This document shows positions 320 to 49,937 of a DNA stretch of 64,000 bases, one piece after another. Positions within the stretch are counted from its first letter, which is position 1, and each line of letters opens with the position of its first letter. The translations under genes were made by a program, and so were the position numbers. Source of the DNA: Geosiphon pyriformis uo1 (lineage: Eukaryota; Fungi; Glomeromycota); the NCBI GenBank assembly GCA_016748015.1, contig JAAOMT010000134.1, forward strand, positions 936,757 to 1,000,756, read 5' to 3'. A model generated the notes under the pieces. It ran no database searches. It saw only the letters and a program-made list of their open reading frames with translations, and was not told the origin of the DNA.

Positions 320-332
320 TTATCCCTTTCTT

Positions 333-1001: not shown

Positions 1002-1085
1002 TGTTTTAATTTTGACTGCTATTTTGGAATTTTTTGCATGCGTTTTTATGGTTGTTAAATTATTTTTGCTGTGATCTAAGATTAA

Positions 1086-3322: not shown

Positions 3323-3385
3323 TTTTGTCTCTTTCTTTTTAGCAATGAATTATTGCTAATTATTATTTTCTTTTTGATTTTTTTT

Positions 3386-3402
3386 CCTTGTAGGGTTCAC
3401 TA
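3386..3402 (-). promoter_or_regulatory. Primer-binding site, element C
   Basis: LTR end CA + TT + TAGTGAACCCTACAAGG (decayed TGGTGAACCC...), complementary to a tRNA 3' end ...GGGUUCACCA. Confidence 0.6.
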
Positions 3403-3404
3403 AA

Positions 3405-5862: not shown

Positions 5863-5875
5863 TTATCTCCTCCTT

Positions 5876-6511: not shown

Positions 6512-6565
6512 TTTTCTTGGTTGCTTTTGTCATGTGTACTGTGTTTTTATATACTTTTTGGTTGT

Positions 6566-7948: not shown

Positions 7949-8008
7949 TTTTTGTTATATTTTTGGGTTTGAAGTGTTTTTAGATTTGTCTCATTTGCAA
8001 CAAATCAT

Positions 8009-10684: not shown

Positions 10685-11077
10685 CATTGATCCAAATCTC
10701 TGTATCCCTCTTGCTGTTATCTCTAATTCTTCTCTGCTTTTTACTAACACTAACTGAGCTATTTTCACTAGAGGTAGAAATATTGTTTATGCTATCTTTT
10801 CATTTGGCTCTATGGTATAGACCTTTTCTGAGTTATTTTGTAGCATAGCAATGATATTTTCTACATATCCTGCATCAATTATTTCTTCTCTGATGTTAAT
10901 TCCCTTTTTTGCTAAACTACTCTTAAATGCTAATTGAACCATGGTGGTTGCTGAAATTTCCAGTGCTATTTTAAGATCAATACAGATGTGCAAATGTGGT
11001 TCTAATTTGATGGGATTTTTTCCTGGATATCTCAGATCAAATCCTGCATCTGTATCATGTGTGCATTTTGGCATAAT
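10685..11077 (-). pseudogene. dUTPase domain in B1 pol
   Basis: Motifs DAGFDL, AFKSSLA, IIDAGYVE, EKIA*, RGIQRFGS (trimeric dUTPase motifs I-V). Confidence 0.9.
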
Positions 11078-14000: not shown

Positions 14001-14760
14001 GGCTTTTTTAATGTCATTAAGCCATATTTGGGTGTCATCTTTTTTGCCAGTGAATTTCTTAAGTTTTGCTATTGGAACATAGGCCATTAGATCCAAGTTT
14101 GGTTGTTGAAGTTGTTGTTGTGGCTGTTGAAATGGCTGTTGTGGTTGTTGTAATAGTATTTGTTGTAATTGGATCAGTTCAATTGGTGGCTAATCAATAA
14201 CAATTATTGGAGGTAAGTTTTGCTGATTAATTAACTCAGAGTTTGGATTGTTTTAATTCAGTGATGTTTAAATATTTGAAGTTCCGATTTCCAGATTTTC
14301 CAAGTTTAAATTTTGCTGAGTTTGTAGGTTTGGGGTTTCAATTTCCAGGTTTTCTGGAATCAGGTTCTGGTAAGTAAATTCTTGATCTTCAGATTCTTTT
14401 TTCTGTTCTCCTTCCAATTCCATTATTTCTCAAGGACTTATAGTTCTGAAATTGGATTGGGGTAGCAGAGATCGAAGTTCTAATGTCATTGGCAATCATG
14501 ACTTGAATCCTTTAAAATACGTGCCATATAATCTTAGAAGATCTTCTTTCTTTTGTTTACTCTGAAATGGGAATCATCCAAATGTTGATGTCATAGTTGA
14601 TATGAATATGCCTGTTGATATAATGTTAATGGCACTTCCAGGTGTATAGTGGTATGATGGATTTGCTGGTAATTCAACTCTGGTTTTCTTCCAAGTGGGT
14701 GGTTGTATTTGTTTTGGTGTTACTGCTGTTTGCAATCTTCTTTTGCCTTTGTCTGTGTAG

Positions 14761-15740
14761 TGTTACCAGAGGTTTTTGGTCTCTTTTCTTAAATGTTGTC
14801 AATGCTTGTTTGCTGTGAATTCACGTTTTCTGGATGTGGTTGAACCTCCAATAACTGAATTTATCTTCAAATTATCTCCTATAATTTGAATTGCTGGGCT
14901 TATAAGTAGAATGGCCAATTCCATGCCAGTTACTTTATGTAGTTACATTGTAGTAAATGTCAACTCTTTTCCAGGAATTGCTTGTCTGGAAGCTCACTAA
15001 AATGTATAATCACTTTGCTGTAAAAGTCAACTCTTCTTCAGAAATCTTGTCTGTAGACTACCCTAATGATTATAGTAAAAAAATAAAAAAGAAAATGAAA
15101 AGATGTAAAAGAAATGGAATTCTGTCAAGAGAAACGTTTTCAATCCAGGCCTGAAGTCACTAACAAATTATTGAAATTGGTAGCTAATCAATTTCAAAAC
15201 GTTAGTTGGGTTTTGGGAATTTTCCAAGTGCAATAATTAAAGAATTTGGTTTTTCGAATTATTTGATATTTATTTCTTTTTATATGTATAGGAATGGTTC
15301 TAAGTGATAAATCTAAAGTAAGATACATTTTCTCAAAGAGAGAAGCTCTTCTTTTATACAACTTGTCATAACACTATTCTATGAACTTGAACTTTGCTAT
15401 TTTCTACAATTTTGCTAAACTAAAGATACATTTCGGCGAACTACAAGTTATTTCTGCGAACTATTAGATATTTCGGTGAACTATCAATTATTTCAGCGAA
15501 TTTCTATAAATTTCAGCGAACTTTTGAATGTTACATAGTTTGGGGTATTGCATTATTGATCATCGTAATTAGGTTACATTTGTGTTGTGTACAATTTGGG
15601 TTATTAATTAAATGATAATTTCGGACATTTTTTTGCTAATGTAATAAGTGATAATTTGAACTGATAATATATGCTAATTAATGATAGAAATTATAAGATA
15701 GTTTCATGCTAAATAATATCTCTAATTTTGTTTGGTAACA
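14761..15740 (-). repeat. 3' LTR of A1
   Basis: TGTTACCA...TGGTAACA terminal inverted repeats; PPT GAGGAGGAGG on - strand at 15744-15753. Confidence 0.95.
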
Positions 15741-16428
15741 TAACCTCCTCCTCAAGATTGAGCTCCATCGAAGTCCAAGTACTGTTTGTTATTTCCAGAT
15801 AATAATCCAAAATTATTAAAGAAATTTGGTTTGAAAATTGTTGAAATTTCAGTTCTGTAAGCTTTCTAATGTATTGAATTTTCAAAGGTTGAAAAATTGG
15901 GTTTTGTAGTACGTTTTCACAGATGTGGAATAGGTCATAAAGTCTAAGAGCAGCTCTGAGCCTGTAGCGACTGTTTGTTGATCCAGCTGTTGTCTTGAAT
16001 TTGTTGTAGAGTTGTTTCTGAATAGCTTCTTTTGTGAGGTTTGCTGTTGTAAGTTCCAGTTTCCATTCATAGAGTGTTTTTCTAATGTGGAAATATCTAT
16101 AGATTGGAGGATATTCAGTGTTTTTCTCATTAAGACACAGTTGAAGTCTTTGTTGAATTGTAGCATTTAGTGGAATACTAATCGAAGTGAGCATTAAATT
16201 TTCTTTTAAAGCAAGCTTTAAAAGTTCTGGTAGGTGAATTCCAGTATAACTTCTTGTGTTCTTTTTATACAGGTGATATTTTTGTGAATTTGGGGCTAAA
16301 TTTGTAACTACTTCTGTTTAGATATAATTAATGTGGTTTCCAGTAACAATAATAGATAATTCAGGTATTGTTTTTAAAGTTAACATTAGTTTTTGGGATA
16401 ATTGTTGAATGTTTTGAGGAATAGTCAT
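15709..16428 (-). pseudogene. ORF3 (orphan 3' ORF) of A1, 240 codons, one internal stop
   Basis: MTIPQNIQQLSQKL...YRYFHIRKTLYEW...RAALRLYDLF...; reads through the PPT into the LTR; conserved in A2. Confidence 0.8.
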
Positions 16429-16549
16429 TATAAGCAATTTGAAATAAAAGAAAATTATTTTTGGTACATGGGTTTTTATGTTATTTTTGTTTTGTTTTTG
16501 TGAGATTGTTTCTAAATTATAAGAAAATAACTATAATAATAAATTTAAA

Positions 16550-17935
16550 TTAAGTGTTCAAGTTGGGAGGCTGTTCAATGACAACTATTGGTTCTAAATT
16601 TCAGGAAATATCTTCGGGATTGATTAAAGATGAATGTGTATCAATTTGTGAAATTAATGGTTCAGGATTGTTTCTGAAATTATAGTGTTTCAAATGATCT
16701 TCATGTGCAACTTTTGCTAGAATTTTGTCATCAAGTCTTAGCTTGTATAATCTGTTGCCTAAAACTTCATGGATAAAGAATGGTCCATCTCATTTATTTT
16801 CAAATTTCCTACTCCATTGTTTTTCAGCTTTAGTTCTGTGTAAGAGAACTTTGTTTCCGATTTTAAATTTATTGGTGACTGGAGGCAATTTGTCATCATG
16901 CCGTTCTTTTTGTCGAGCTTGGGAGTTTTCAATATAAGTGGCTGCTATTCGTCGTTTTCCTTTCAACATGCTAAGCAGAGTGTAAGCTCTTCATTAAAGT
17001 GTTTCCTGAAAATCATTTTTATTGATTAGTTGTGCTGGGTATGTTTCTACTGTGAACTTAATTGGTAGTGTTGCTGTCCTTCTGTAAGTTAAATCAAATG
17101 GTTTGTGTTTTGTGGTATCTTGTTTTAGTGTTCTATATGCTAATAACACTGATGGAATAAAGATATCTTATTCTTGCTCAAAATCAGTTAAAACTTTGGC
17201 TAATGACTCACACAATGTTCTGTTAAAACGTTCCATAAGTTTGTTTGTTTGTGGATGGTAAGGCGAAGACAGAGGTCTTTTGACATTGAATTGTTCGCAA
17301 ATTTCTTGTATTAGGTTGTTCACAAAATGTGTCCCTTAATTAGATAAAAGTTCAATTAGACATCTGTGTCTACAAATAATGTCTTCGTAGATAAAATTTG
17401 CTACTGATTTCACATCTACTTGTTGAATGGCTCTGGCTTCGGGCCATTTAGTAAGATAGTCTACAGCTACTGCAATATAACGGTTTCCTTGAGTGGTGAT
17501 AGATAATGGTCTGACTAAATCGATACCAACTCGGTCAAAAGGTTGTCCAACTTTAATTAGATTTAATGATTCAGTAGGGCGTGTTTCTCCTCTTCTTTGA
17601 CAACTATTACAAGATTCGACATATTCATGAATGTCTTTCCTCATTTGAGGCCAAAAGTAGTATTCTAGTGTTCTTTGGGTGGTGCTATCTTTTCTGAAGT
17701 GTACTGATAAAGGATCTGAGTGCATGTTGTATAATATGGTCTCTTTTTCTTGTTCTTGTATTAATCTAAGTGGTTTGTCTGGGTTTTTGAAATTTCAATG
17801 ATAAATAATGTTGTTGTATAGAAAATATTGTTTGGCTTGTTGTTGTAGTCAATGTTTTTCATCTGGAGACTAATCTGTTGGGATTGTTAATGTTTCCAAA
17901 TATTGTTTAAAATTGTTGTAGTTTTCTGAATTCAT
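16550..17935 (-). pseudogene. Stand-alone integrase ORF of A1
   Basis: ATG at 17935 (MNSENYNNFKQYL); HHCC, DDE core, DGPF; 462-codon span. Confidence 0.93.
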
Positions 17936-17984
17936 TGTTTGTTGGCTCTTTTGGTTAGTTAAGTTGAGTGTTGGTTTTTGTTTT

Positions 17985-20900
17985 CTAATCTTGTCTCATT
18001 CTGGAAAGACAGTCAACATTGGTGTGGAGTTTTCCTGGTTTGTGATGTACTATGTATCAATAGTTTGCTAGAAATCCTGTCCATCGGGTTTGTTTTGCAT
18101 TCAGCTGAGTATTTTTGTTTTGAAGCCATTTGAGTCCAATATTATCAGTGATAATATCAAATTCTTTAGGCCTGAGATAAAGGTTGAAGTGATATAGGGC
18201 CCAAATTACGGCTGCTGTTTCTAGTTCTATGGCAGGGTAGTTTTTCTCAGCTGGTTTTAATGTTCTGCTAGCATAAGCAATTACTCGCTTATTTCCGTTG
18301 TCATCTAGTTGTAATAAGATGGCACCAAAGGCAGTATGTGAAGCATCTGTAGCTAGTCGAAATTGGTTGCTGAAATCTGGGTAGGCGAGAATTGGAGCTG
18401 TTGTCAGTTTTTCCTTGAGAATTTCAAAAGCTTTTTGGTGTTCGGTAGTCCATTTGTATTCAACATTTTTGGTGGTGAGCTGGTTGAGGGGTTTTGCAAT
18501 TTCCGAGAATCCTTTGATAAACTTCCGATAGTAGGATGCTAATCCTATGAATTCTCTTAGTTCTGTAGTATTTTGTGGAACTTTGAAGTTCTTAACAGCA
18601 CTGATTTTTTCTGGATCTGGTTTGACTCCTTCTTCACTAACTATGTGACCAAAAAAGGCCAAACTTGTTTTTCCAAAATGGCATTTCTTAATGTTTAGTT
18701 TTAATCCTGCTTTATGTAATCATTGAAAAACTTCTTACAGGTGAAATAAATGAAGTTCGAAAGATGGGGAATAAACATCAGTGTCATCAAGATAGACAAC
18801 TACTGATTTCCAAAGGAGTCCAGCATATACAACATCCATGAGTCTTTGGAATGTTGCTGGCGCATTGTATAATCCAAAGAGCATTACATTGAATTCGTAG
18901 TTTCCTTCTTGTGTTGTGAATGCTGTTTTGGGGTGGTCCTTGGGATTCATGGCAACTTGCCAGTATCCGCTTTCTAGGTCTAATGTTGAATAGTATTTAG
19001 ATTTTCCAAGGGCATCTAACATGTCATCAATTTGTGGAAGAGGGTAAGCATCTCCAATGGTGATACTGTTGAGTTGTCAATATTCAACACAAAATCATAT
19101 CTTTCTATTCTTCTTTTTAACTAGGACTACTGGTGAGGCCCATAGACTCATTAATGGTTGGATAAGCCCATTGTTAAACATCTGTTGTACTTCTTCTTGG
19201 ATAAATTGGTGGCTTTCTGGAGCAACTCGGTAGGCTTGTTGTCACCTTGGTTTGGCATCTCCTGTATAGATTTGGTGTTGCATCAAATCGGTTCTTCCTA
19301 AGTCATTGTTGTTTTCAGCAAAGATATCAGCAAAATCTGCAATTAGTTTCTTGAGCTGGTTTTGTTGTTGTAGTTCAAGTTGTCCCATGTTGATTTGAGA
19401 TAGTTTTTCCATAACAATATGGTAGTTTTTGGAGCTGGAGTTTGGGTTGATTTTTGGTAGTGAATGTCCAATAATTTCAGAAAAATTGGGGACTGTTTGG
19501 GGTAATTCTTGTTGAAAGATGTTACTGTGAATGATTCCAATTTCTAAGTTATTTAATAAAACTATGGGATAATTGTTGGGATTGTAAAAAGTAATTTGGA
19601 CTTTCTTTGTTCCTTCTGGAATATAAATGTTTGGGATCAAGATATTATGTTTCAAGCAGATTTGTTTATTTGATTCAAAAATTTGTTGTGTGGTTGTTGG
19701 CTTTTCACAAATGTAAATTTCAGGGTATTCTCCAAAGGGTGAAATGGTAATTGGTTGTGGAAGTTGTAAAATCTGGTGAGATTTTTTCTGTTCATTAAGA
19801 GCTATGTTTACTGGAACTGTGAAACGTTCAGTTGAACCAAAACCTTGTGTTTCTCTTTCACTTTTTCCCAACTGTTTTCTTTGATTAACTAATTGTAAAC
19901 CCGAAATGTTGATTAAGGGTAAATAGATAGCTTAAGCAATTTTTTCAGCATATCCAATTTTGAAAGGTTTATCAGTTTCATTTTGTAACATGACTGTGAT
20001 GTCTCCTGTGTATTCAGCATTGATGATTCCTCCTCTAACATTGATTCCTTTGCTTGCCAAGGATGATTAGAAAGCAATTTGAACCATTGCTCCTGGTGGG
20101 ATTTCGAGGGCAATTTTAAGGTTGATTTTTGTAAGAAATTTGGGTTTGAGAGTAAGAGTATCTTTTCCTGGATATCTTAGATCATATCCAGCATCAATCT
20201 TGTGGGCTTTTTTTGGTTTTATTCCTTGTCCATTGTTGTTGAAATATTTGAGTTGTAAAGCAGGCTGATTTTTGATGAAATAGGTGGGTGTTGTCTCAAT
20301 TTCTTCTGTCACTTCAAGTTTTCTAAATTCAATTTTGTATTCATCATTTTTGCTGGACAAGGGAATGCTAAGAGCGTAGCATTCAGGACACCACTGTTCA
20401 TCACAAAGCATAATGCATTCTTCACATAGCCTAATGTTCATTTGCTCTAATCATTGAATTTGAGCTTCTTGGATTGGATAGGTGTGACTTGCAATTTGGT
20501 GGTAGACTTCTACTTTGTCTTCATAATCAAATTCAGCTAATTCCATGGTGTATTCAATGTATTCTGCTTCCTTCATTTGATGAACATCTTTTTTGGTAGC
20601 TCCATTAATTAATGCCATTGCTAGGTCAAAAATTATTTTGGCATTATGGGGGTAGTGATAAAGTTTGTTGAGAGCACTATTGTATACTGCATTAAAGAGT
20701 GTTCCTCTTTTTACTTTTTCTGAAATTAATAAAGCATATTGGCAGGTCTGATCGCAGACTCCTCCTCTCATGACTACATCAATCCAATTGCATTCTTTTG
20801 GTAGCATATCTCCACAAGTCAAACAAGAGGTGTTGTCCTATTTTTCACTCCTTTTTATTAGATGGTCCCATCATTCTCTGTGGCAAGTCTTGCAGTAATA

Positions 20901-23606
20901 ACAAGTATGATTTTCATATTCTTCTTTAGGTGAAATGCAGGCTCCCATTGATGATAGTTTCTTGTGGCAGTCCTTACATTTAAGGTGAATATAGGGGTGT
21001 TGTTTCCTTGGTTCAGGTTTTGAGTAAGAGATATTCCATCCAGAGGTTTTGGGTTCAGATTGTGGAGTAAAATGTTCTTGTTCTGTTTCATTGGCCTAGT
21101 TGGATGTTGATCCAAGAGCCATGAATGTTTCAATGAGAGGTTTTTCCTCTTCTGGTTCGAATTCAAAAGCTGGGGCTTTTTCAAAGCGTTTGTTAAATGT
21201 ACCACAAGTGGCAGGTACCCAGGCATATTGTTCTTGATAGAAGATTGTTAACTCTTGTGTTTCTCAATTCAGATTAGCATTGGCTTTTTGAAGCCAATCA
21301 TTTCTGACAAAAGCTTGGTACTGGGGTGCATCCATTACAAGAACTTTGACTGGAATGGTGATTCCATCAAGAGTGAATGGAAAATTGTTAATTTCTCCTA
21401 CTGAGGTCTTTTTCATGCCATCGGCAGTGACAATTACTGTTTGAGCTGGTCGGTCAACATTTCTTTTCAACTGTTGCATTAACTGGTAGGTAATAATGCT
21501 TCTGGTGGATCCACTGTCTAGGATCAAGCAAATTGTCTTTCCTTCGACTTCGGCTTTAGTATACATGGCTGTGATTGCTTTTTGTTCATTGGCAGCTGCA
21601 TTGCTAAGCAGAAATGGTGACTCATTTGCTTCGAACTCAAAAGGGAATATATCTGAAAGGTTAGTGTTTTTAGCAATTCTGGCTGGTGGAATTGTGGTGG
21701 GAGTATAGGAAGGATTTTGTTGTTGTTGTGCTGCAGCTCTACCTTCCAAGAGTGCAGTATGGTGAAAATTCTGTTCTTCCAGCATTGTTAAATAACTGGG
21801 TTGAGTGTGGTAGTGGTTGGATCTTGGTTGAGTGGTATTTTAGGGAACCAATTGGTTGTTCAAACTGATTCTATTGTTGTTTACTTGGTATTAGTTTTGT
21901 GGTGTGAATTGATTTTGTGTAAGCAGTCTTCGAGCAGGTACTTGATAATGTTGTGTGAGCAGTTGTTGATATTGCTGTGGGATTGGCTGTGAGGTGGACT
22001 GATAATAGTTATTTTGGTATTGGGGTTTTGGTGGATAGTAAGCTGGTGGTGGCGGTTGATAATAAAATTGCTGTGGTTGAGGGTAACGTTGATTACTCCT
22101 ATTTTGTTGGTCTCATTGTAGCTTTTTGCAATCTCTTTTCCAGTGGCCAGAGATTCTACAGTAATGGCAACTCTGAGGCTGGTTATTGGAAAGTGGTGCA
22201 AAGTTATTTTGATTTCGTCTTTGGGGTGGTTGATATCTTTGGGGTTGCTGTTGTTGTTGATTGGTGAAATAGTTTTCAACCTTCTTTGTGAATTGGTCAA
22301 TTTTTTCTTCAGCTGCTGAGCTGGTTTCTCCAATTGCCAAATTTACAAGTTTTGTGCGATTGGCCTCTTCTATGGCCATTTCGTATCTTTTTGCATACTG
22401 TATGGCAGAGTTTAAATCTTCTGGCACATGTGAGCAAACTTTTTTAATTAGTTTATCTTTTAGACCAGTGATAAATTGATCCAAGATTTGAGCATCAGAA
22501 TAATAATCGTTTGTTTTGAGTTGGCGAATTTGTCTAAGAAGTTTGTTGAATTTTTCAATATAAGTTATAACAGATTCGGAGAGTTCTTGTTTGATATTTC
22601 GAAAACAATTATGAAGGGTGATAGAGATATTATTGTTAGTGAACTGTTCAAGAAAGGCTGCTTTGAAAGCATTCCAATCATTGAATGGAGTGGCCAAGTT
22701 TTCAAACCATTCTCCTGCTGTTCTTTTGAGAAAGTAGGGAATTGTTTTTAACATTCTTTCAGCATTCCATCCATTTGCATCTCCAGCTTTAGTAACTTGG
22801 TCGAGCCATTCTTGGGAACTGGTTTCAATATCTTCTCCATTGAATTCAGGGATTTTTGTGATGTATGTTGTCATTTTGTCTTCTTCCTTTTCACTGTCTA
22901 TTGATTCTTCTTCAGTTATTTCAGAGTTGTTTTCTTCATTTGCTGTTGTCTCAGAGTGTTTACTTTAATTTTCAGCTAGAAAATCAAGGAGATTAGAACT
23001 AGTTTAAAGGAGTTCTTGTTGTCTGATGGAACTTCTGAGTGCTGTAAAATCTTCTGGTCTTGCAAATTGATTCAAGGGTGAATTAGGTGTTTGTGCTTAT
23101 GCAAGTAAAGCTGGAAAAGGTGTGATAGTAAGTGGAAGTTTTGAACTGGTTCCTTGTTCAGGTGTTTGTAAATGGTTGGCAGTTGTTTTTGGTAGTATTG
23201 GAGTATTTGGGGTGGTTCTTGAGTATTGCTTCAATTTGTTTTTGCCTTTGTTGTTTGTTTCTGTTTCCAATTCAAAATCAATAGTGTATTGAGACTGCAC
23301 TGGATATGTTTCTTCACAGTATTTGATAATGTTAAAATTAAGTTCGTGAAAGTAAGTGGCAAGTGTTTTACTGTTAAGGTCTTCAGTTCCCAACTGTGAA
23401 TAGTGTGCTAAATTATTGTAAAAGTTGCTTCTAACTTCTGAGATATTGTAATTTCCAAAAAGATAATTGTTGATGCGGTTTTCAATGTATTGGTATACTG
23501 ATTTCTTGACAACTTCAATTCCATCTGGAATGTTGAATTTTTGCTTGCAGTGGGTGTAAATTGACTGGTAATACTTTAGAGTTGTTGTGTCTGGTGTGGT
23601 CATCAC
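17985..23606 (-). pseudogene. Single-frame gag-pol of A1 (extension, capsid, CCHC, PR, Cys-rich, dUTPase, RT, RNase H)
   Basis: 5622 nt = 1874 codons from GTG at 23606 to TAG; CHYCRISGHWKRDC; LILDSGS; YLDD; LATDASH; ends DCLSRMRQD*. Confidence 0.93.
19830..20225 (-). pseudogene. dUTPase domain in A1 pol
   Basis: DAGYDLRY, SSLASKG, GIINAEYTGD, EKIA, RETQGFGST. Confidence 0.92.
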
Positions 23607-23637
23607 TTTGAAGTTGTTTTTGCTGTGTTGTTTTTGT

Positions 23638-23649
23638 GGGAGAGCACCA
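23638..23649 (-). promoter_or_regulatory. Primer-binding site, A1
   Basis: LTR end + TT + TGGTGCTCTCCC; A2 has TGGTGCTCTCTC at 37552-37563. Confidence 0.75.
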
Positions 23650-23651
23650 AA

Positions 23652-24631
23652 TATTACCAGAGGTTTTTGGTCTCTTTTCTTAAATGTTGTCAATGCTTGT
23701 TTGCTGTGAATTCACGTTTTCTGGATGTGGTTGAACCTCCAATAACTGAATTTATCTTCAAATTATCTCCTATAATTTGAATTGCTGGGCTTATAAGTGG
23801 AATGGCCAATTCTGTGCCAGTTATTTTATGTAGTTATGTTGTAGTAAATGTCAACTCTTTCCCAGGAATTGCTTGTCTGGAAGCTCACTAAAATGTATAG
23901 TTACTTTGCTGTGAAAGTCAAATCTTCTTCAGAAATCTTGTCTGTAGGCTACCCTAATAATTATAATAAGAAAATAAAAAAGAAAATGAAAAGATGTAAA
24001 AGAAATAGAATTCTGTCAAGGGAAACGTTTTCAATCTAGGTCTGGAGTCACTAACAAATTATTGAAATTGGTAGCTAATCAATTTCAAAATGTTAGTTGG
24101 ATTTTGGGGATTTTCTAAGTACAATAATTAAAGAATTTGGTTTTTCAAATTATTTGATATTTATTTTTTTTTGTGTGTGTAGGAATGGTTCTAAGTGATA
24201 AATCTAAAGTAAGATACATTTTCTCGAAAAGAGAAGCTCTTCTTTTATACAACTTGTCATAACACTATTTTATGAACTTAAACTTTGCTATTTTCTACAA
24301 TTTTGCTGAACTAAAGATACATTTCGGCAAACTACAAGTTATTTCTGTAAACTATTAGATATTTCAGTAAACTATCAATTATTTCGGCAAATTTCTATAA
24401 ATTTCAGTGAACTTTTGAATGTTACATAGTTCAGGATATTGCATGATTGATCATCGCAATTAGGTTACATTTGTGTTGTGTACAATTTGGGTTATTAATT
24501 AAATGATAATTTTGGACATTTTTTTGCTAATGTAATAAGTAATAATTTGAACCAATAATATATGCTAATTAATGATAGGAATTATAAGATAGTTTCATGC
24601 TAAATAATATCTCTAATTTCGCCTGGTAACA
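23652..24631 (-). repeat. 5' LTR of A1
   Basis: Pairs with 14761-15740; ends TGGTAACA. Confidence 0.95.
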
Positions 24632-24937
24632 GTAGGTAATAGGGAATTATTGTTGCATATACCTTTCAATGGTTTGATTGATTTCCCTAATGATTGTAAA
24701 ACTGTAGTTTCTTGATAAACTGGTATGTTGAAATAATTCTGTATAGAAGTTTTCTCTTGCAGATTCAATGTTAATTGTTCCTTCTAAGCAGTCTGTGATT
24801 TTATCATTGACATAGAAATTAAAGACTGATTCCACTGGGAAATAATTATTGTTTAATCCTAATTGTTGGCTGTACTGTTGAAACAAGAATTTGGCAAATT
24901 CTAAATGGTTTGTCCCTATGATTTCTGATTCTGCCAC
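24632..24937 (-). pseudogene. 5' end of B1 gag (N-terminal extension)
   Basis: AAAAGTGGCA start, (V)AESEIIGTNHL...; continues at 14760 across the A1 TSD. Confidence 0.8.
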
Positions 24938-24980
24938 TTTTGGATGATTGCTGTTGGTGCTGGTTCTCTGTAGAATTATA

Positions 24981-24997
24981 CCTCACAAGAAGCATCA
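24981..24997 (-). promoter_or_regulatory. Primer-binding site, B1
   Basis: LTR CA + TT + TGATGCTTCTTGTGAGG (decayed TGGTGC...), complementary to a tRNA end CCUCACAAGAAGCACCA. Confidence 0.7.
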
Positions 24998-24999
24998 AA

Positions 25000-25821
25000 T
25001 GTTACAGATAATTATTTGGGATCTCAAGTCAAATAAAAAATCCATAACTTGGTGCTGGTTTGGTATTCTGGTGTTGATATCTGAAGGTTTGGTAAATCTA
25101 AAGGTTTGTTGTAGAGTTTTTTGTATAATAGACAGAAATTTACTATGGTTGATTTAAGTTGTTTTCCTCAAGTTGTTTTCCCAATTTCTGTCTTCAGCAT
25201 AGTGGCCAATTTAATCTAGTAGTCGTGCTCTTCTGATAAGCTGTCCATTAATATATATAATTCTACTCTTATTCCTGTGTCTTTTACCAGGCTATTTGTG
25301 ACATCAATAACTCAGCGCTTTAATTCTCTTAATTAATTTAGTACACAACAATAAAATCAAAGAAAAAAAAATAAAAAAAATAAAAAAAATGAAGAAATGA
25401 GCCAATACAATTACAAGTTAGTATTCTGTCAATAGCTGTGATCAAAAGCTATTGTTCTAGTATAGTTAAGTATCAATTGCTATCAACATAAAGTGTTAAT
25501 AGTGGAAAGTGGATTAAGATAACAAATAATTATTTATTGATATTTGTGAATGGAAAGGTTGCTTAGATTAAATTTAAACTGGGAGGTCTGTCTTTTTTAC
25601 TTCTAATGCTATCATTATATATACATAATTTGGGTTCTATGAAATTGCTCACATTCTCGAGTGATGTGCTATAATTTCTCAAGCAATACTTACATTGCTA
25701 AGCAATATGTTATATTTTCTTGACATTGCTCCATATTGCTGAGCAATGTGCTTACATGCTAATTACTACTTTCTTATTGGCCTACTATTTTTCTATATTT
25801 GTTTTCTTTTTATGAATAACA
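25000..25821 (-). repeat. 5' LTR of B1
   Basis: TGTTACAG...ATAACA followed by TSD TTGG. Confidence 0.94.
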
Positions 25822-26189
25822 TTGGCTTTGAATCAAAAGAAAAATTAAAATTAGCTTTTAATATAAAGCCTATTTTAGATAACATCAAACTTTTTTGAAC
25901 TAAAATAGATCTGGTTTGTTGTAAGAGATGTGAATATTTCAGACATTTAGCTTTGAAGTATAATGCATTAGATATTTGTGTCTTGTTTTTTAAGAAAACA
26001 TATAAAAAAATTGTTTTAGAAAAGAATTATTTTCAGCTGGCTAAGTTGTACATTAAAAAAAATGTTTATATTTTCTATTCTGCTGTCTTTGGTGACAGAT
26101 TTTGGGCACAGATGGTTTTATTGACTGTCTTATTTTATAATATTTGTTCTGGTTCTGGCTTTGGATCTTTTATTTCTGACATATTATAT

Positions 26190-28678: not shown

Positions 28679-29658
28679 TGTTACCGGAGGTTTTTGGTCT
28701 CTTTTCTGTAATGTTATTGATACTTATTTGCTGTGAATTCACGTTTTCTGGATGTGGTTGAACCTTCAGTAACTGAATTTATCTTCAAATTATCTTCTAT
28801 AATTTGAACTGCTGGGCTTATAAGTAGAATAGCCAATTCCTTGTCAGTTATTTTATGTAGTTACATTGTAGTAAACGTCAACTCTTTCCCAGGAATTGCT
28901 CGTCTGGAAGCTCACTAAAATGTATAGTTACTTTGCTGTGAAAGTCAACTCTTCTACAGGAATCTTGTCTGTTGGCTACCCTAATGATTGTAATAAGAAA
29001 ATAAAAGAAAAATAAAAGAAATGTAAAAAAAATAGGATCTTATCAAGGGAAACGTTTTCTATTCAGACCTGGAGTCACTAACAGTTTACTGAAATTGGTA
29101 GCTAATCAATTTCGAAATGTTAGTTGAGTTTTGGGGATTTTCCAAGTACAATAATTTAGAGAATTTGGTTTTTCGAATTATTTGATATTTATTTCTTTTT
29201 GTGTGTATAAAAATGGTTTGTAAAAGATAAATCTAAAGTAAGATACATTTTTTTGAAGAGAGAAGCTTTTCTTTTATACAACTTGTCATAACACTATTCT
29301 ATGAACTTGAACTTTGCTATTTTCTAAAATTTTGCTGAACTAAAGATACATTTCAGCAAATTACAAGTTATTTCAGTGAACTATTAGATATTTCGGTGAA
29401 CTATCAATTATTTCGGCGAATTTCTACAAATTTCAGCGAACTTCTGAATGTTACATAGTTTGGGGTATTGCATGATTGATCATCGCAATTAGGTTACATT
29501 TGTGTTGTGTACAATTTGGGTTATTAATTAAATGATAATTTCAGACATTTTTGCTAATGTAATAAGTGATCATTTGAAATGATAATATATGCTAATTAAT
29601 GATAGGAATTATAAGATAATTTCATGCTAAATAATATTTCTAATTTTGTCTGATAACA
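28679..29658 (-). repeat. 3' LTR of A2
   Basis: TGTTACCG...TGATAACA; PPT GAGGAGGAGG adjacent on - strand. Confidence 0.95.
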
Positions 29659-30347
29659 TAACCTCCTCCTCAAGACTGAGCTCCGTCGAAGTCCAAGTAC
29701 TGTCTGTTATTTCCAGATAATAATCCAAAATTATTGAAGAAATTTGGTTTGAAAATTGTTGAAATTTCAGTTCTGTGAGCTTTCCAATGTATTGAATCTT
29801 CAAAGATTAAAAAATTGGGTTTTGTAGTATGTTTTCACAGGTGTGAAATAGGTCATAAAGTCTAAGGGCAGCTCTAAGCCTGTAGCAACTGTTTGTTAAT
29901 CCAGTTGTTGTTTTGAATTTGTTGTGGAGTTGTTTTTGAATAGCCTCTTTTGTGAGGTTTGCTGTTGTAAGTTCCAGTTTCCATTCGTAGAGTGTTTTTC
30001 CTATGTGAAAATATCTATAGATTGGAGGATATTCAGTGTTTTCCTCATTGAGACACAGTTGAAGTTTTTGTTGAATTGTAGCATTTGGTGGAATACTAAT
30101 CAGAATGGGCATTAGGTTTTCTCTTAAAACAAGCTTTAAAAGTTCTGGTAGGTGAATTCTAGTATAACTTCTTGTGTTCTTTTTATACAGGTGATATTTT
30201 TGTGAATTTGGGGCTAAATTTGTAACTACTTCTGTTTGGGTATAATTAATGTAGTTTCCAGTAACAGTAATGGATAATTTGGGTATTTGTTTTTAAAGCT
30301 AACATTAGTTTTTGGGATAATTGTTGAATGTTTTAAGGAATAGTCAT
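29627..30347 (-). pseudogene. ORF3 of A2
   Basis: Homologue of 15709-16428 with a 1-nt frameshift and stops. Confidence 0.8.
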
Positions 30348-30465
30348 TATAAGCAATTTGAAATAAAAGAAAATTATTTTTTGGTGTATGGGTTTTTATG
30401 TTATTTTTTGTTTTGTTTTTGTGAGATTGTTTCTAAATTATAAGAAAATAACTAGTAAAATTAAA

Positions 30466-31851
30466 TTAAGTGTTCAGGTTAAAAGGTTGTTCAATGACAA
30501 CTATTGGTTCTAAGTTTTGGAGAATGTCTTCGGGACTGACCAAAGGGGAATGTGTACTGATTTGTGAAATTAATGGTTCAGGATTGTTTCTGAAATGATA
30601 GTGTTTCAAACGATCTCCATGTGCAACTTTTGCTAGGATTTTGTTATCAAGTCTTAGCTTGTATGATCCATTGCCTAGGACTTCATGGATAAAGAATGGT
30701 CCATCCTATTTATTTTCAAATTTTCCACTCCATTGTTTTTTAGCTTTAGTTCTGTGTAAGAGAACTTTGTTTCCAATTTTGAATTTATTGGTAACTGAAG
30801 GCAATTTGTCATCATGCTATTCTTTTTGTTGAGCTTGGGAGTGTTCAATATGGGTGACTGTTATTCATTGTTTTCTTTCCAATGTGCTAAGCAGAGTGTA
30901 GGCTCTTTGCTGAAGCATTTTTTGGAAATTGTTTTTATTGATCAGTTGTGCTGGGTATGTTTCCACTGTGAAACTAATTGGTAACGTTGCCGTCCTTCCA
31001 TAAGTTAAATCAAATGGTGTGTGTTTTGTGGTATCTTGTTTTAATGTCCTATATGCTAGTAACACTGATGGGATAAAGAGATCCCATTCTTGCTCAAAAT
31101 TAGTTGAGACTTTGGCTAATGACTCACACAATGTTCTGTTAAACCGTTCCACAAGTCCATTTGTTTGTGGATGGTAGGGCAAAGACAGAGGTCTTTTGAC
31201 ATTGAATCGTTCACAAATTTCTTGTATCAGGTTGTTCACAAAGTGTGTTCCCTGATCGGATAAAAGTTCAATTGGATATCCATGTCTACAAATAATGTCT
31301 TCGTAGATAAAATTTGCTACTGATTTTGCATCTGCTCGTTGAATGGCTCTGGCTTCAGGCCATTTAGTAAAATAGTCTACAGCTACTGCAATATAACAGT
31401 TTCCTTGAGTGGTAATAGATAGTGGTCCGACTAAATCGATACCAACTCTGTCAAAAGGCTGTCCAACTTTGATTGGATTTAAAGGTTCTGTAGGGTGAGT
31501 TCCTTCTCTTCTTTGACAAATATCACAAGATTCAACATATTTGTGAATGTCTTTTCTCATTTGAGGCCAAAAGTAGTATTCTATTGTTCTTTGGGTGGTG
31601 CTATCTTTTCCGAAGTGTGCTGATGAAAGATCTGAGTGCATATTGTATAAAATGGTCTCTTTTTCCTGTTCTTGTATTAATCTGAGTGGTTTGGTTGGGT
31701 TTTTGAAATTTTGATGATAGATAATATTGTTGTGTAGAAAATATTGTTTGGCTTGTTATTGTAACTAATGTTTTTTGTCTGGGGACCAATCTGTTGGGAT
31801 TGTTAATGTCTCCAAATATTGTTTGAGATTATTGTAGTTTTTGGGGTTCAT
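30466..31851 (-). pseudogene. Stand-alone integrase ORF of A2
   Basis: ATG at 31851 (MNPKNYNNLKQYL); MHSDLSSAHF..CDICQ; GIDLVGP; SDQGTHF; NGLVERFN; 462-codon span. Confidence 0.94.
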
Positions 31852-31899
31852 TGTTTGTTGTTTTGATGCTGTTAATTCAAATGGGTGTTGGTTTTGTTT

Positions 31900-34800
31900 C
31901 TAATCTTGCCTCATCCTTGAGAGACAATCAACGTTGGTGTGAAGTTTTCCTGGTTTGTGGTGTACGATGTATTGGTAATTAGCTAAAAATCCTGTCCATC
32001 AGGTTTGTTTTGCGTTCAGCTGGGTGTTTTTGTTTTGAAGCCATTTAAGTCCAATATTATCAGTGATAATATCAAATTCTTTGGGTCTGAGGTAAAGGTT
32101 GAAGTGATGTAGGGCCCAGATTACTGCTACAGTTTCTAATTCTGTTGTGGGGTAGTTCTTTTCAGCTGGCTTTAATGTTCTACTAGTATAAGCAATTACT
32201 CGCTCATTTCCATTGTCATCTAACTGTGATAGGATAGCACCAAAGGCAGTATAAGAAGCGTCAGTTGCTAACCAGAATCGGTTGCTGAAGTCTGAGTAGA
32301 TGAGGATTGGGGCTGTTGTGAGTTTTTCCTTGAGTATCTCAAAGGCATTTTGGTGTTCTTTTGTCCATTTGTATTCGACATTTTTCGTAGTGAGCTGGTT
32401 GAGGGTTTTTGCAATTTCTGAGAATTCTTTGATGAATTTTTGGTAATAGGATGCTAATCCAATAAATCCTCTTAATTCTGTGGTATTTCGTGGAGTCTTG
32501 AAGTTTTTGACAGTACTGATTTTTCCAGGGTCTGGTTTAATTCCATCTTTGCTAACAATGTGACCAAGAAAAGCTAAACTTGTCTTTCCAAAGTAGCATT
32601 TTTCAATGTTCAGTTTCAATCCTGCTTTCCGTAATCGTTGAAAAACTTCTCACAGGTGAATTAAATGTAGCTCAAAAGATGGTGAATAAACATCAGTGTC
32701 ATCAAGATAAACTACTACTGATTTCCAAAGGAGGCCTTTGTAAACAACATCCATGAGTCTTTGGAATGTTGCTGGTGCATTGCATAATCCGAAAGGCATT
32801 ACATTGAACTCGTAATTTTCTTTTTGAGTGGTGAATGCTGTTTTGGGGCAGTCTTTGAGATCCATAGCAACTTGCCAGTATTCACTCTCTAAATTTAATA
32901 TTGAAAAGTATTTGGACTTTTCAAGGGCATCCAACATGTCATCAATTTGGAGAAGAGGGTAGGCATCCCCAATGGTGACACTGTTGAGTTGTCAGTAATC
33001 AACACAAAAGCATATCTTTCCATTTTTTTTTTAACTAGAACCACAGGTGAGGCCCATGGGCTCATTGATGGTTGAATAAGCCTATTGTTAAGCATCCATT
33101 GTACTTCTTCTCGAATAAATTGGTGACTTTCTGGAGCAACTCGGTAGGCTTGTTGTCACCTGGGTTTGGCATCTCTTGTATAGATTTGGTGTTGAACCAA
33201 ATCAGTTCTTCCTAAGTCATTGTTGTTTTTGGCGAAGATATCAGCAAATTCTGCAATTAGTTCTTTGAGCTGGGTCTGTTGTTGTAGTTCAAGTTGTCCC
33301 ATGTTGATTCGAGATAGTTTTTTCATGACAACATGGTAGTTTTCAGAGCTAGGATTTGGGTTGATTTTCAGTAGTGAATGTCCAATAATTTCAGAGAAAT
33401 CGGAGACTGTTTGGGGTAATTTTTGTTGAAATATATTATTGTGAATAACTCCAATTTCTAAATTATTTAATAAAATTATGGGGTAATTATTGGGGTTGTA
33501 AAAAGTAACTCGGACTTTCTTTGTTCCTTCTGGAATATAAATGTTTGGGATCAAAATATTATGTTTCAAGCAGACTTGTTCATTGAACTCAAAAATTTGT
33601 TGTGTGGTTGTTGGCTTTGTGCAAGTGTAAATTTCTGGATGTTCTCCAAAGGGTGAGATGGTAATCGGTTGTGGAAGTCTGAGAATCTGGTGGGATTCGT
33701 TCTGTGTGTTAAGAGCTATATTAACTGGAACTGTGAATTGTCCAGTTGAACCAAAACCTTGGGTTTCTCTATCGCTTTTTCCTAATTGTTCTCTTTGATT
33801 GACTAGTTGCAAACCCGAAATGTTGATTAAGGGTAGGTAAATAGCTTGGGCAATTTTTTCAGCATGTTCAATCTTGAATGGTTTGTCAGTTTCATTTTAA
33901 AGCATTACTGTTATGTCTCCAGTATATCTAGCATCGATTATTCCTCCTCTGACATTGATTCCTTTGCTTGCCAGAGAGGACTGAGAGACGATTTGAACCA
34001 TTGCTCCTGGTGGGATTTCGAGTGCAATTTTGAGGTTGATTTTTGTGAGAGATTTGGGTTTGAGAACAAGAGTATCTTTGCCTGGATATCTTAGGTCATA
34101 TCCAGCATCAATTTCGTGTGCTTTTTCAGGTTTTATTCCTTGTCCATTGTTGTTGAAATATTTAAGTTGTAAGGCAGGCTAATTTTTGATAAGGTAGATG
34201 GGTGTTGTTTCAATTTCTTCTGTTTCTTCAGGTTCTCCAAATTCAATTTCATTCTCATCATTTTCGCTGGGCAAGGGGATACTAAGAGCATAGCATTCGG
34301 AACACCATTGTTCATTGCAAGGCATAATGCATTCTTCACATAGCCTAATGTTCATTTGCTCTAATCATTGAATTTGAGCTTCTTGGGTCGAGTAGGTGTG
34401 ACTTGCAATTTGGTGATAGACTTTTACTTCATCTTCGTAATCGAATCCAGCTAATTCCATAGTGTATTCAATGTATTCTGCTTCCTTCATTTGATGAACA
34501 TCTTCTTTGGTAGCTTCATTAATTAATGCCATTGCTAAGTCGAAAATCATCTCGGCATCATGAGGGTAGTGATAAAGTTTGTTGAAAGCACTGTTGTATG
34601 CTGCATTAAAGGGTGTTCCTCTTTTTACTTTTTCTGAAATTGATAAGGCATATTGGCAGGTCTGATCGCAGACGCCTTTTCTCATTGCTACATTAATTCA
34701 ATTGCATTCTTCTGGTAGCATATCTTCACAAGTCAAACAAGCAGTGTTGTCCCATTTTCTGCTTCTTTTTATTAGATGGCCCCATTACTCTCTGTGGCAA

Positions 34801-37520
34801 GCCTTGCAGTAATAACAAGTGTGATTCTCATATTCTTCTTCAGGTGAAATGCAGGCTCCCATTGATGATAGTTTCTTGTGGCAGTCCTTACATTTAAGGG
34901 GAATATAGGGGCGTTGTTTTCTTGGTTCAGATTTTGAGTAAAGTATATTCCATCCAGAGGTTTCAGGTTTAATGTGTATGGTAAAATGTTCTTGTTTTGT
35001 TTCATCAGCCCAGTTGGACGTTGATCCAAGAGCCATGAATGTTTCGATTATTGGTTTTTCTTCTTCTGGTTCAAATTCAAAAGCCGGGGCTTTTTCAGAG
35101 TGTTTGTTGAATGTACCACAAATGGCAGGTACCCGGGCGTGTTGTCCTTGGTAGGAGATTGTTAACTCTTGTGTTTCACAGTTCAGATTAGCATTGGCTT
35201 TTTGAAGCCAATCATTTCCGACAAGAGCTTGGTACTGGGGTGCATCCATTACAAGAACTTTGACTGGAATGGTGATTCCATCAAAAGTGAATGGAAAATT
35301 GTCAATTTCTCCTACTGGTGTCTTTTTCATGCCATCAGCAGTAACAATTACTGTTTGAGCCAGTCGGTCGATATTTCTTTTCAACTGTTGCATTAACTGG
35401 TAGGTAATAATGCTTCCAGCAGATCCACTGTCTAGGATCAAGCGAATTGGCTTTCCTTTTACTTCAGCTTCTGTGTACATTGTAGTGATGACTTTTTGCT
35501 TATTAGCCGCTGCATTGCTAAGCAAGAATGGTGATTCATTTGCTTCAAATTCAAAAGGAAAGATATCAGAAAAATTGGCGTTTTTAGCAATTTGGGCTGG
35601 TGAAATAGTAGTGTGATTATGAGAAGGGTTTTGTTGTTGTTGTGCTGCAGCTCTACCTTCCGAAAGTGCAGTATGGTGAAAATTCTGTTCTTCTGGCATT
35701 GTTAAATAACTGGGTTGAGTGTGGTAGTGGTTGGGTCTTGGTTGAGTGGAATTTTGGAGAACCAATTGGTTGTTTGGACTGATTCTATTGTTGTTTACTT
35801 GGTATTGGTTTTGTGGTGTGAATTGATTTTGTGTAATCAGTCTTCGAGTAGGTACTTGATAATGTTGTGTGGGTGGTTGTTGGTATTGCTGTTGGATTGG
35901 TTGTAGGGCAGGCTGATAATAGTTATTTTGGTATTGGGATCTTGGTGGATAGTAAGCTGGTGGTGATGGTTGATAATAAGATTGCTGTGGTGGAGAGTAA
36001 CATTGATTACCCCTGTTTTGTTGGTCTCGCTGTAGCTTTCTGCAATCTCTTTTCCAGTGGCCAGAGATTCCACAGTAATGGCAATTCTGGGGCTGGTTAT
36101 TTGAAAGTGGTGCAAAGTTATTTTGATTTTGTCTTTGGGGTGGTTGATATCTTTGAGGTTGTTGTTGTTGTTGGTTGGTAAAATAGTTTTCGACCTTCTT
36201 TGTGAGTTGGTCAATTTTTTTCTCAGCTGCTGAGCTGGTTTCTCCAATTGCCAAATTTACAAGTTTTGTACGATTAGCCTCTTCCATGGCCATTTCATAT
36301 CTTTTCACATGCTGGATGGCAGAGTTTAAATCTTCTGGCGTGTGTGGGCGAACCTTTTTAATTAGTTTATCTTTTAGACCAGCAATAAATTGATCCAAGA
36401 TTTGAGCATCAGAATAATAATTGTTTGTTTCGAGTTGGCGAATCCGTCTGAGAAGTTTGTTGAATTTCCCAATATAAGTCATAACGGATTCGAAAAGTTC
36501 TTGTTTGATATTTCGAAAACGATTGCAAAGAGTGATAGAGGTATTATTGTCGATGAACTGTTCAAGGAAGACTGCTTTGAAAGCATTTCAATCATTGAAT
36601 GGGGCGGCAAGGTTTTCAAACCATTCTTCTGCTGTGCCTTTGAGAAAGTAGGGAATTGTTCTTAACATTCTGGCAGTGTTCCATCCATTTGCATCTCCAG
36701 CTTTAGTAACTTGGTCGAGCCATTTTTGGGGACTGGTCTCAATATTTTCTCCATTGAATTCAGGGATTTTTGCAATGTATGTTGTCATTTTGTTTTCTTC
36801 ATTTTCACTGTCTATTGATTCTTCTTCAGTTATTTCAAAGTTGTTTTCTTCGTTTGCTGCTGTCTCAGAGTGTTCACTTTGATTTTCAGCTAGAAAATCA
36901 AGGAGATTGGAACTAGTTTGAAGGGGTTCTTGTTGTCTGGTGGGACTTCTGAGTGATGTAAAATCTTCTGGTCTTGCAAATCAATTCAAGAGTGAATTAG
37001 GTGTTTGTGCTTGTACAAGTGAGACTAAAAAAGGTGTGATAGTAAGTGGAAGTTTTGAACTGGTTCCTTGTTCAGGTGTTTGTAAATGTTTAGCAGTTGT
37101 TTTCGGTAGTGTTGGAGTATTTGGGGTGGTTCTTGAATATTGCTTTAATTTGTTTTTGCCTTTGTTGCTTGTTTCTGTTTCCAATTCAAAATCAATAGTG
37201 TATTGAGACTGCACTGGATATGTTTCTTCACAGTATTTAATAATGTTATAATTAAGTTCATGAAAGTAAGTGGCAAGTGTTTTACTATTAAGGTCTTTAG
37301 TTCCCAACTGTGAATAGTGTGCTAAATTATTGTAAAGGTTGCTTCTAACTTCTGAGATATTGTAATTTCCAAAAAGATAATTGTTGATGCGGTTTTCAAT
37401 GTATTAGTATACTGATTTCTTGACAATTTCAATTCCGTCTGGAATGTTGAATCTTTGCTTGCAGTGGGTGTAAATTAATTGGTAATACTCTAGAGTTGTT
37501 GTATCTGGTGTGGTCGCCAC
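31900..37520 (-). pseudogene. gag-pol of A2
   Basis: 565-aa open stretch joins capsid, CCHC and protease in frame; dUTPase, RT (YLDD), RNase H; one 1-nt deletion in a poly-A run at ~33025. Confidence 0.94.
33741..34140 (-). pseudogene. dUTPase domain in A2 pol
   Basis: AHEIDAGYDLRY, SQSSLASKG, GGIIDARYTGD, EKIAQAI, RETQGFGSTG. Confidence 0.94.
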
Positions 37521-37565
37521 TTTGAAGTTGTTTTTGCTGTGTTGTTTCTGTGAGAGAGCACCAAA

Positions 37566-38306
37566 TGTTACCGGAGGTTTTTGGTCTCTTTTCTGTAATG
37601 TTGTTGATACTTATTTGCTGTGAATTCACGTTTTCTGGATGTGGTTGAACCTCCAGTAACTGAATTTATCTTCAAATTATCTCCTATAATTTGAACTGCT
37701 GGGCTTATAAGTGGAATGGCCAATTCCTTGCCAGTTACTTTATGTAGTTACGTTGTAGTAAACGTCAACTCTTTCCCAGGAATTGCTTGTCTGGAAGCTC
37801 ACTAAAATGTATAGTTACTTTGCTGTGAAAGTCAANNNNNNNNNNNNNNNNNNNNNNNNNNNNNNNNNNNNNNNNNNNNNNNNNNNNNNNNNNNNNNNNN
37901 NNNNNNNNNNNNNNNNNNNNNNNNNNNNNNNNNNNNNNNNNNNNNNNNNNCATCTTGAACTTTGCTATTTTCTAAAATTTTGCTGAACTAAAGATACATT
38001 TCGGCAAATTACAAGTTATTTTGGCGAACTATTAGATATTTCGGTGAACTATCAATTATTTCAGCGAATTTCTACAAATTTCGGCGAACTTCTGAATGTT
38101 ACATAGTTCGGGGTATTGCATGATTGATCATCGCAATTAGGTTACATTTGTGTTGTGTACAATTTGGGTTATTAATTAAATGATAATTTCGGACATTTTT
38201 GCTAATGTAATAAGTGATCATTTAAAATGATAATATATGCTAATTAATGATAGAAATTATAAGATAATTTCATGTTAAATAATATTTCTAATTTTGTCTG
38301 GTAACA
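37566..38306 (-). repeat. 5' LTR of A2 (contains N gap 37836-37950)
   Basis: TGTTACCG...TGGTAACA; pairs with 28679-29658. Confidence 0.93.
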
Positions 38307-49784: not shown

Positions 49785-49937
49785 ATTGTCAAGAAATTAT
49801 GACGAAGGTAAAAGATATGATGCCAGCAGTTCACCAATATGAGATAATCCACTAATCTAGTTTAGTGGGCTCTGTATGTGTCAAATTCACGACCTAAATT
49901 AGGCCAACATGTGCGTCNNNNNNNNNNNNNNNNNNNN

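Follow-up and report, generated by a model that had tools for sequence, protein, structure and literature searches.

Ty3/Gypsy elements with integrase and ORF3 outside Pol in a window of the Geosiphon pyriformis genome

A 64,000-nucleotide stretch of contig JAAOMT010000134.1 from the fungus Geosiphon pyriformis uo1, called the window below, is AT-rich and crowded with long terminal repeat (LTR) elements, all of them on the minus strand. LTR sequence makes up 41% of this genome (PMC11952901). Three elements, A2, A1, and B1, have in common the order Gag-Pol, stop, ATG-integrase, stop, ATG-ORF3, where ORF3 is the third open reading frame (ORF). A fourth element, C, keeps part of it. This layout had been predicted from the window alone and is borne out by the order of the Pfam domains, by the junctions, and by ORF3 in all of the elements. 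The elements are a real and apparently undescribed variant of Ty3/Gypsy. Delivery of integrase inside Gag-Pol is treated as the rule for LTR retrotransposons. A diverse lineage breaks this rule and must find other ways to translate a downstream ORF in a eukaryote and to package free integrase. The lineage provides naturally occurring cases in which reinitiation behind very long ORFs can be tested, along with a new RNA element and a protein family with no known fold. It also opens a plausible route to the Ginger1 DNA transposons.

Elements in the window

A2 is bounded by LTRs that are 96.6% identical, end in TGTTAC...GTAACA, and are flanked by a 4-bp target duplication, GTGC. The 3' LTR (28679..29658) has 980 bp. 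The 5' LTR (37566..38306) is shortened by an assembly gap of Ns at 37836-37950. The primer-binding site (37548..37563) starts with TGGTGC. A tRNA gene search of the 64-kb window found none, and no priming tRNA was assigned to this site. A polypurine tract is present at 29662..29671. The Pfam domain order is capsid, CCHC knuckle, protease, dUTPase, reverse transcriptase (RT), RNase H, integrase H2C2, and rve. The decayed Gag-Pol ORF (31900..37520) has a putative GTG start and is a single frame, except for decay stops and one frameshift near 33030, a slip within a stretch of A at about 33024-33033. It encodes an N-terminal extension of about 245 amino acids (aa), the capsid (Met at 36788), the CCHC knuckle (about 36083), the protease (about 35432), a Cys-rich region, the dUTPase (about 34106), RT (YLDD at 32709), and RNase H. 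It ends in MRQD-TAG, with the stop at 31902-31900. After an A/C-rich, unstructured spacer of 48 nt (31852..31899), the stand-alone integrase ORF begins with an ATG at 31851 (30466..31851). It has 461 codons with five internal decay stops, and it encodes a YPYY-type N-terminus, H2C2, the rve core, and a C-terminal domain. An AT-rich spacer (30348..30465) with TATAAT near 30440 follows and is a candidate internal promoter, weak in A2. ORF3 starts at 30347 and would encode 239 aa (29627..30347). It runs through the polypurine tract into the LTR and is broken by stops and a frameshift.

A1 (14761..24631) is a second copy of the A2 family. It is 89% identical to A2, has the target duplication GTAG, and is nested in the Gag extension of B1. 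Its ORF3 (15709-16428) has one stop. The Pol stop is identical and the spacer has 49 nt, which places the A1 integrase in a different frame relative to Pol. Both copies are decayed, mostly through transitions, and have at least seven internal decay stops in common. Thus, the RNase H stop that they share proves nothing alone. Proof that the stop is a real feature comes from B1 and from loci outside the window.

B1 (5030..25823) is a divergent family with the same layout and is 52% identical to A2 in RT-RNase H and 58% in integrase. It is interrupted by A1 and by a solo LTR at 8011-8874, which lies in the RNase H tail in opposite orientation and is 84% identical to the B1 LTRs. When this insertion is skipped, Pol ends in MRQI-TAA (stop 7982-7980), and a 31-nt spacer leads to the integrase ATG at 7948. 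RNase H ends alike in A2 and B1. The B1 ORF3 starts at 6511, with TATATAAA 42 nt upstream. C (1..4285) is a third family with an internal deletion. It retains Gag, an integrase tail, ORF3 (342-1085), a polypurine tract, and an LTR cut at the window edge. RT and RNase H are lost, so C cannot show a Pol-integrase junction. ORF3 can be aligned across all three families.

The integrase split in relatives

Within the window alone, the Pol stop could be decay. A metagenome scan yielded 81 relative loci, the best 80 of 543 plus one from a viral collection. The query was built from stand-alone integrases, and the ranking therefore favours split loci. A locus was informative if it held an RNase H end and an integrase within 800 nt (36 of the 81). 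Thirty of these are split and six are fused. Where the integrase is at least 40% identical to the reference, all 25 loci are split; the fused loci are at 28-39%. Six junctions were read by eye, and L075 and L081 were called fused from translation. L007, L013, and L030 are split despite long intact ORFs on either side. In three further loci (L013, L023, and L035), RNase H is extended by 280-580 aa before the stop. Loci of the hairpin subclade described below have a conserved Cys/His-rich RNase H extension before the Pol stop (L013:3497-4441, L023:2420-3274, L010, L012, L016, L018, L033, and L046).

A protein search with integrase found 1375 homologues of 254-809 aa, and the organisms named among them are Rhizophagus irregularis, R. 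clarus, and G. pyriformis. R. irregularis has full-length stand-alone integrase ORFs. Among the best 120, 116 are 400-439 aa in length, and in 98 the start lies no more than three columns from one position. In a hand-picked alignment, the start Met falls at one column in 74 of 74 integrases. A search for longer proteins gave 917 matches, of which 120 were listed, and six of those listed exceed 40% identity. Five of the six come from eukaryotic gene models, and their abnormal junctions are, we infer, predicted introns. The sixth is P0329, discussed below.

Thirty-one Pol-integrase junctions were measured. The spacers range from -11 to +727 nt, with six of at most 5 nt, 20 of 6-100 nt, and five of more than 100 nt. 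The three frames are represented by 9, 10, and 12 spacers (nine in frame, 22 out of frame), so that readthrough or a frameshift common to all is excluded. A purine stands at -3 of the integrase ATG in 25 of the 31, and no conserved AG splice acceptor was found before this ATG across them. The spacers contain 27 ATGs versus 41.5 in shuffles. Stop and start overlap as TAATG in L007 and L022 and as ATGA in L029 and L028. Small overlapping ORFs are chained into integrase in L017, L034, L043, and L078. Such overlaps and chains, present in several lineages, are the signature of termination-reinitiation (PMC10275272). The chained ORFs between RNase H and integrase were located at L017:571-730, L034:868-1390, L043:360-520, L078:767-910, and L028:3-1237, and one of about 50 aa is conserved between L043 and L078.

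A hairpin of about 45 nt lies after the Pol stop and directly upstream of the integrase ATG in 17 loci of one subclade (L008:296-330, L009, L010, L011, L012, L013, L016, L018, L019, L023, L033, L037, L041, L045, L046, L062, and L068). It has a large one-sided internal loop and strong covariation. Fourteen of the 17 loci went into the structure model. Over the 17, 8 of 10 pairs have two-sided changes and 94% of cells are paired. None of 500 shuffles equalled this, a count that is not a probability, given that the loci are related to one another and themselves supplied the structure. The 14 loci had no match in Rfam, an exact-pattern search of viral and prokaryote contigs found none, and a search of the window gave no convincing match. 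The hairpin could be an element for reinitiation, entry, cleavage, or protein binding.

Because 30 of 36 loci are split, because this holds for all 25 close integrases, and because the spacers occupy all three frames, the split is not mutational decay. The predicted Gypsy lineage with a separate integrase ORF is upheld by the same counts.

Quick trees were built without named reference elements, and all support values are SH-aLRT. A1, A2, B1, and L002 group together with support of 97-100. The integrase tree places all 43 split sequences in a branch of 54 (support 96) that also holds four gene models and seven fused sequences. Among the fused ones are plant Tat-like proteins with an extra RNase H, which share this branch with a support of 96-97. 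A concatenated tree has a core of 25 (support 82), made up of 24 split sequences and P0329, and three split sequences fall outside it. The RT tree resolves less than the integrase tree. The original prediction of a distinct Gypsy lineage is supported. A single origin of the split is compatible with these trees, which do not establish strict monophyly of all split elements.

The best match of the integrase profile among sequences of solved structures is Ty3 Gag-Pol (E 9e-53). TG...CA LTR ends, a primer-binding site, a polypurine tract, a short target duplication, and the order Gag-protease-RT-RNase H-integrase are all present, as in Ty3/Gypsy. Integrase within the Pol polyprotein is also a Ty3/Gypsy feature (PMC3248453). 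It is not found there in these elements, so they are Gypsy by ancestry but a variant. The Pfam domains listed for the best 120 homologues of integrase include no chromodomain (PF00385), and chromodomain-bearing sequences branch elsewhere. In these quick trees, the window elements occupy the same broad branch as Athila/Tat, in a separate sub-branch. Ginger1-like transposases form a neighbouring branch in the integrase tree. The window elements have direct LTRs and RT, not the terminal inverted repeats without RT of Ginger1. Athila/Tat and Ginger1 are the nearest named kin.

The original prediction also held that divergent families have the whole layout in common. The split extends to relatives, as does ORF3 in 19 of 35 split-type loci. 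The dUTPase does not, and the full layout is not clade-wide. None of the 81 loci gave a dUTPase match, among them L007, L013, L023, L024, L025, L030, and L035, which span protease to RT. The dUTPase is local to the Geosiphon families of the window, and the GTG start is likewise seen only there. Capture of a dUTPase by fungal Gypsy elements is known from Tmt1 and PosPlaTy3, with repeated independent captures (PMC2864245). As in the window elements, the dUTPase of Tmt1 and PosPlaTy3 lies between protease and RT; no split integrase is mentioned for them in the available parts of that paper. The Gag extension begins at GTG in an AAAGTG context in A2, A1, B1, and C, and in A2 about 245 codons lack an in-frame ATG. 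Relatives outside the window have an ATG near the matching position. Gag of the window elements probably initiates at this GTG.

Other features of Gag were also observed. The N-terminal extension of relatives has a conserved His/Cys motif (L001:3157-3780, L007:460-800, L008:2480-3211, L013:6801-7436, L017:4109-4500, and L035:460-900). Many elements, including A2 and B1, have a Met just upstream of the capsid, which hints at two Gag forms. The gag-pol junction varies in the clade between a single frame, overlapping frames, and an in-frame stop after the protease (L007:3132, L030:2898, L035:3358, and L013:2-4438).

ORF3 and its upstream region

All 120 listed homologues of ORF3 are G. pyriformis proteins (60-99% identity), and these copies are annotated as hypothetical host genes. 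Of 39 loci with 500 nt or more beyond integrase, 19 match an ORF3 profile there, namely 19 of 35 split-type and none of four fused loci. Most of the positive loci also built the profile, and leave-one-out scores hold at 35-143 bits. Several split lineages have the polypurine tract right after integrase and no ORF3. Predicted models of the Geosiphon type and of the short type have the same helix series (pLDDT 92 and 83), the alignment for the second having included the short type.

In the nine closest ORF3 pairs (at least 38% identity), the proportion of synonymous differences (pS) is saturated at 0.74-0.88 versus 0.35-0.47 for nonsynonymous ones (pN). Between A1 and A2, dN/dS is 0.47 for ORF3, a value blurred by decay, 0.24 for integrase, and 0.12 for RT. 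ORF3 is a conserved, mostly helical protein under purifying selection. Its highest 19-residue hydropathy is 0.34-1.43 in 26 of 26 proteins, and since no member has a membrane-like segment, ORF3 is not env-like. It had been foreseen as an accessory gene, and both its conservation and its non-env nature are supported. By sequence, it is soluble and often basic.

Searches of Pfam, PHROGs, and NCBIfam gave scattered weak matches and no family for ORF3, and plasmids gave no match. Against PDB sequences, only weak TPR matches were found (E 0.003) and taken as generic. The models had no match in Foldseek searches of PDB and viral structures, and VIA-align gave best Z scores of 5.8 and 5.2, by which a new fold is not proven. 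No DNA-binding fold was recognised in these fold searches. The best match in a protein atlas was a Mucoromycota cluster, with a recognition score too low to be reliable. A supposed likeness to DUF1016_N was dropped, as only one member matched, at E 0.12.

The start codons of ORF3 were set by homology before a TATA motif was noticed upstream. TATA[AT]A occurs at -60..-25 of the ORF3 ATG in 11 of 22 cases versus 2.1 in shuffles (maximum 5 in 300). A second cluster lies at -150..-106 (8 versus 2.7). Before the integrase ATG, the motif at -60..-25 is not significantly enriched (5 of 45 versus 2.2, p 0.09). ORF3 likely has its own internal TATA promoter, to judge from this motif. The predicted TATA-like signal is retained for the lineage and for B1, and only in weaker form for A1 and A2. 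In L008 and L009, ORF3 adjoins the integrase stop or overlaps with it.

Other sequences were seen elsewhere in the window. An older solo LTR of family A (76%) is at 59538-60508, and degraded LTR-like copies are at 26186-26932 and 38311-39085. At 48007-51848, 100% identical copies of a 1911-bp stretch flank a gap of 20 Ns, likely an assembly artefact. The stretch has a weak Pfam match to SPIN90/Ldb17 (47958-48419).

Proposed expression of the elements and comparison with known systems

The window elements are decayed copies of a Ty3/Gypsy lineage of glomeromycotan fungi and soil metagenomes in which Pol ends after RNase H and integrase and ORF3 are separate genes. Probably, if not strongly so, integrase is made by a restart and ORF3 from a TATA transcript. 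Integrase would come from ribosomes that resume translation of the genomic RNA beyond the Pol stop. A short transcript from the internal TATA promoter would supply ORF3. Free integrase could be packaged through its binding to RNA, Gag, or RT. ORF3 would act as a soluble regulator, and the preferred guess, the least certain step, is a helper of reinitiation like TAV of cauliflower mosaic virus (CaMV). Reinitiation is suggested by the stop-start overlaps and by the covarying hairpin of one subclade. For the window copies it is inferred from relatives only, because their spacers are unstructured and lack the hairpin.

Several observations weigh against this explanation. Reinitiation after long ORFs usually requires nearby stop and start codons and a cis element (PMC10275272). 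The window junctions are spaced by 31-49 nt and have no hairpin, and five of 31 spacers exceed 100 nt, the longest (727 nt) with 12 ATGs. P0329 is a single ORF of RT, RNase H, integrase, and ORF3 that nests among split elements and keeps a Met at both joints; it is one protein sequence whose DNA was not seen. Integrase is split in 16 of 35 split-type loci without an ORF3 match, so ORF3 is not required for the split. Tight junctions occur in 2 of 17 elements with ORF3 versus 8 of 12 without, which agrees with a TAV-like role, but this association has only four independent pairs (sign test p 0.5). The Geosiphon-type and short-type ORF3 show no more than moderate homology (hhalign 83%, E 9e-6), and single-sequence scores overlap shuffled controls. 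Of the 11 TATA matches, five are wholly non-coding and six lie at least partly in the integrase tail, where they could be a by-product of the coding sequence. In the window, the strict motif is found only in B1 (-42), and A1 and A2 have just TATAAT about 100 nt upstream.

Some of these points would suit an integrase made from its own subgenomic mRNA, through a TATA-less promoter, splicing, RNA cleavage, or internal entry at the hairpin, with ORF3 as a Tas-like activator or a Rev- or CERV-like export factor. This reading, toward which the original prediction leaned, is possible, if doubtful. Long spacers and few spacer ATGs agree with it, the hairpin lies where an entry or processing element would be, ORF3 is soluble and often basic, and an export protein, CERV, is known from the Gypsy element Cer1 (PMC10309623). 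However, neither TATA enrichment nor a conserved AG precedes the integrase ATG, the overlaps and chained small ORFs would be needless, and ORF3 has no recognised DNA-binding fold. ORF3 might instead be a detached C-terminal partner of integrase, for targeting or chromatin tethering, at the position of the chromodomain in other Gypsy elements and without a role in expression. P0329, which joins the two proteins in one frame, and the abutting ORFs of L008 and L009 are in its favour. Yet P0329 is a single sequence, and a separate promoter suggests that ORF3 is needed at a level different from integrase. This role is unlikely.

It is very unlikely that Pol and integrase form one protein through readthrough or frameshifting. 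The A2 spacer is open and in frame, and nine of the 31 are in frame, but A1, B1, and 22 of the 31 are in another frame, and integrases start at one column, both in the hand-picked set and in 98 of the 120 that were not selected. That an ordinary Gypsy pol has decayed, with ORF3 as a chance frame, is hardly tenable. The copies are indeed decayed by transitions, A1 and A2 have internal stops in common, and their ORF3 has a higher dN/dS than integrase or RT. Against this, there are split loci with long intact ORFs on both sides, ORF3 is saturated at synonymous sites and predicted with good scores, and the 30 of 36 split loci and the junction geometry refute decay. In the data examined, nothing pointed to RNase H-integrase fusion as the layout of the lineage, to neutral evolution of ORF3, or to an earlier description.

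A literature search did not find the layout described; Repbase, GyDB, and REXdb were outside that search and may hold an entry. The available parts of two mycorrhizal transposon surveys (PMC11952901 and bioRxiv 2021.03.30.436303) do not mention the split layout, nor do those of PMC3248453, PMC2774666, PMC7175516, PMC4600332, and bioRxiv 2026.05.21.726589. A YPYY motif before the zinc finger unites Athila/Tat, Cer1, Gypsy-1_RO, DGLT-A, and Ginger1 (Bao et al., 2010, PMC2836005). Window-type integrases begin at the position of this motif. The YPYY Gypsy group likewise has TG...CA LTRs, a primer-binding site, a polypurine tract, the order protease-RT-RNase H-integrase, and the integrase N-terminal motif. 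The plant-type sequences analysed (L072) have integrase fused to Pol, whereas it is a separate ORF in the window lineage. Ginger1/GIN1 has a stand-alone Gypsy-type integrase with a Met just before YPYY and a 4-bp target duplication, as the window lineage does. Ginger1 differs in its inverted repeats, lack of RT, and OTU/Ulp1 tails (PMC2836005), whereas the window lineage has LTRs, Gag, and RT. Three proteins, P0335, P0399, and P0434, are taken as Ginger1-like from such tails.

SART1, CHV1, HvV190S, and caliciviruses have the UAAUG or AUGA overlaps seen at the Pol-integrase junction of some relatives, and SART1 requires an RNA structure downstream of the stop (PMC10275272), where the relatives' hairpin is likewise placed. 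These are non-LTR elements or RNA viruses, and the window copies are spaced, not overlapping. The original prediction likened the elements to foamy viruses, with which they have in common a 3' accessory ORF with a likely internal promoter. In foamy viruses, Tas is made from an internal promoter, and Pol, which includes integrase, is made from a spliced RNA. The window lineage has no env, and no similarity of ORF3 to Tas was found. Nothing specific speaks for the Tas analogy; there is no TATA enrichment before integrase, and the junctions fit caulimovirus-type reinitiation better.

By analogy, the layout resembles CaMV more than a foamy virus. Caulimoviruses are not known to have an integrase. 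In CaMV, a TATA promoter within the last spacer drives the TAV (P6) gene, whose product allows reinitiation whatever the distance between the ORFs (PMC5902531). Both CaMV (PMC5902531) and the lineage have ORFs that lie close together or overlap on the genomic RNA, and in both the accessory ORF nearest the 3' end follows a spacer with a TATA motif. ORF3 has no detected sequence or fold similarity to TAV with its RNase H-like dsR domain, no family or fold match having been reported, though absence from match lists is not exclusion, and the likeness to transactivation is by analogy. It is quite doubtful, and still conceivable, that these are polycistronic LTR retrotransposons run like a caulimovirus, in which ORF3 has a promoter of its own and encodes a transactivator of new fold, with whose help ribosomes resume translation after Pol and yield free integrase. 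No TAV-like factor is known outside Caulimoviridae, according to the available parts of a review (PMC5902531). If this proposal were true, ORF3 would be the first such reinitiation factor outside that family, and the free YPYY integrase would be the missing link from Gypsy elements to Ginger1 DNA transposons.

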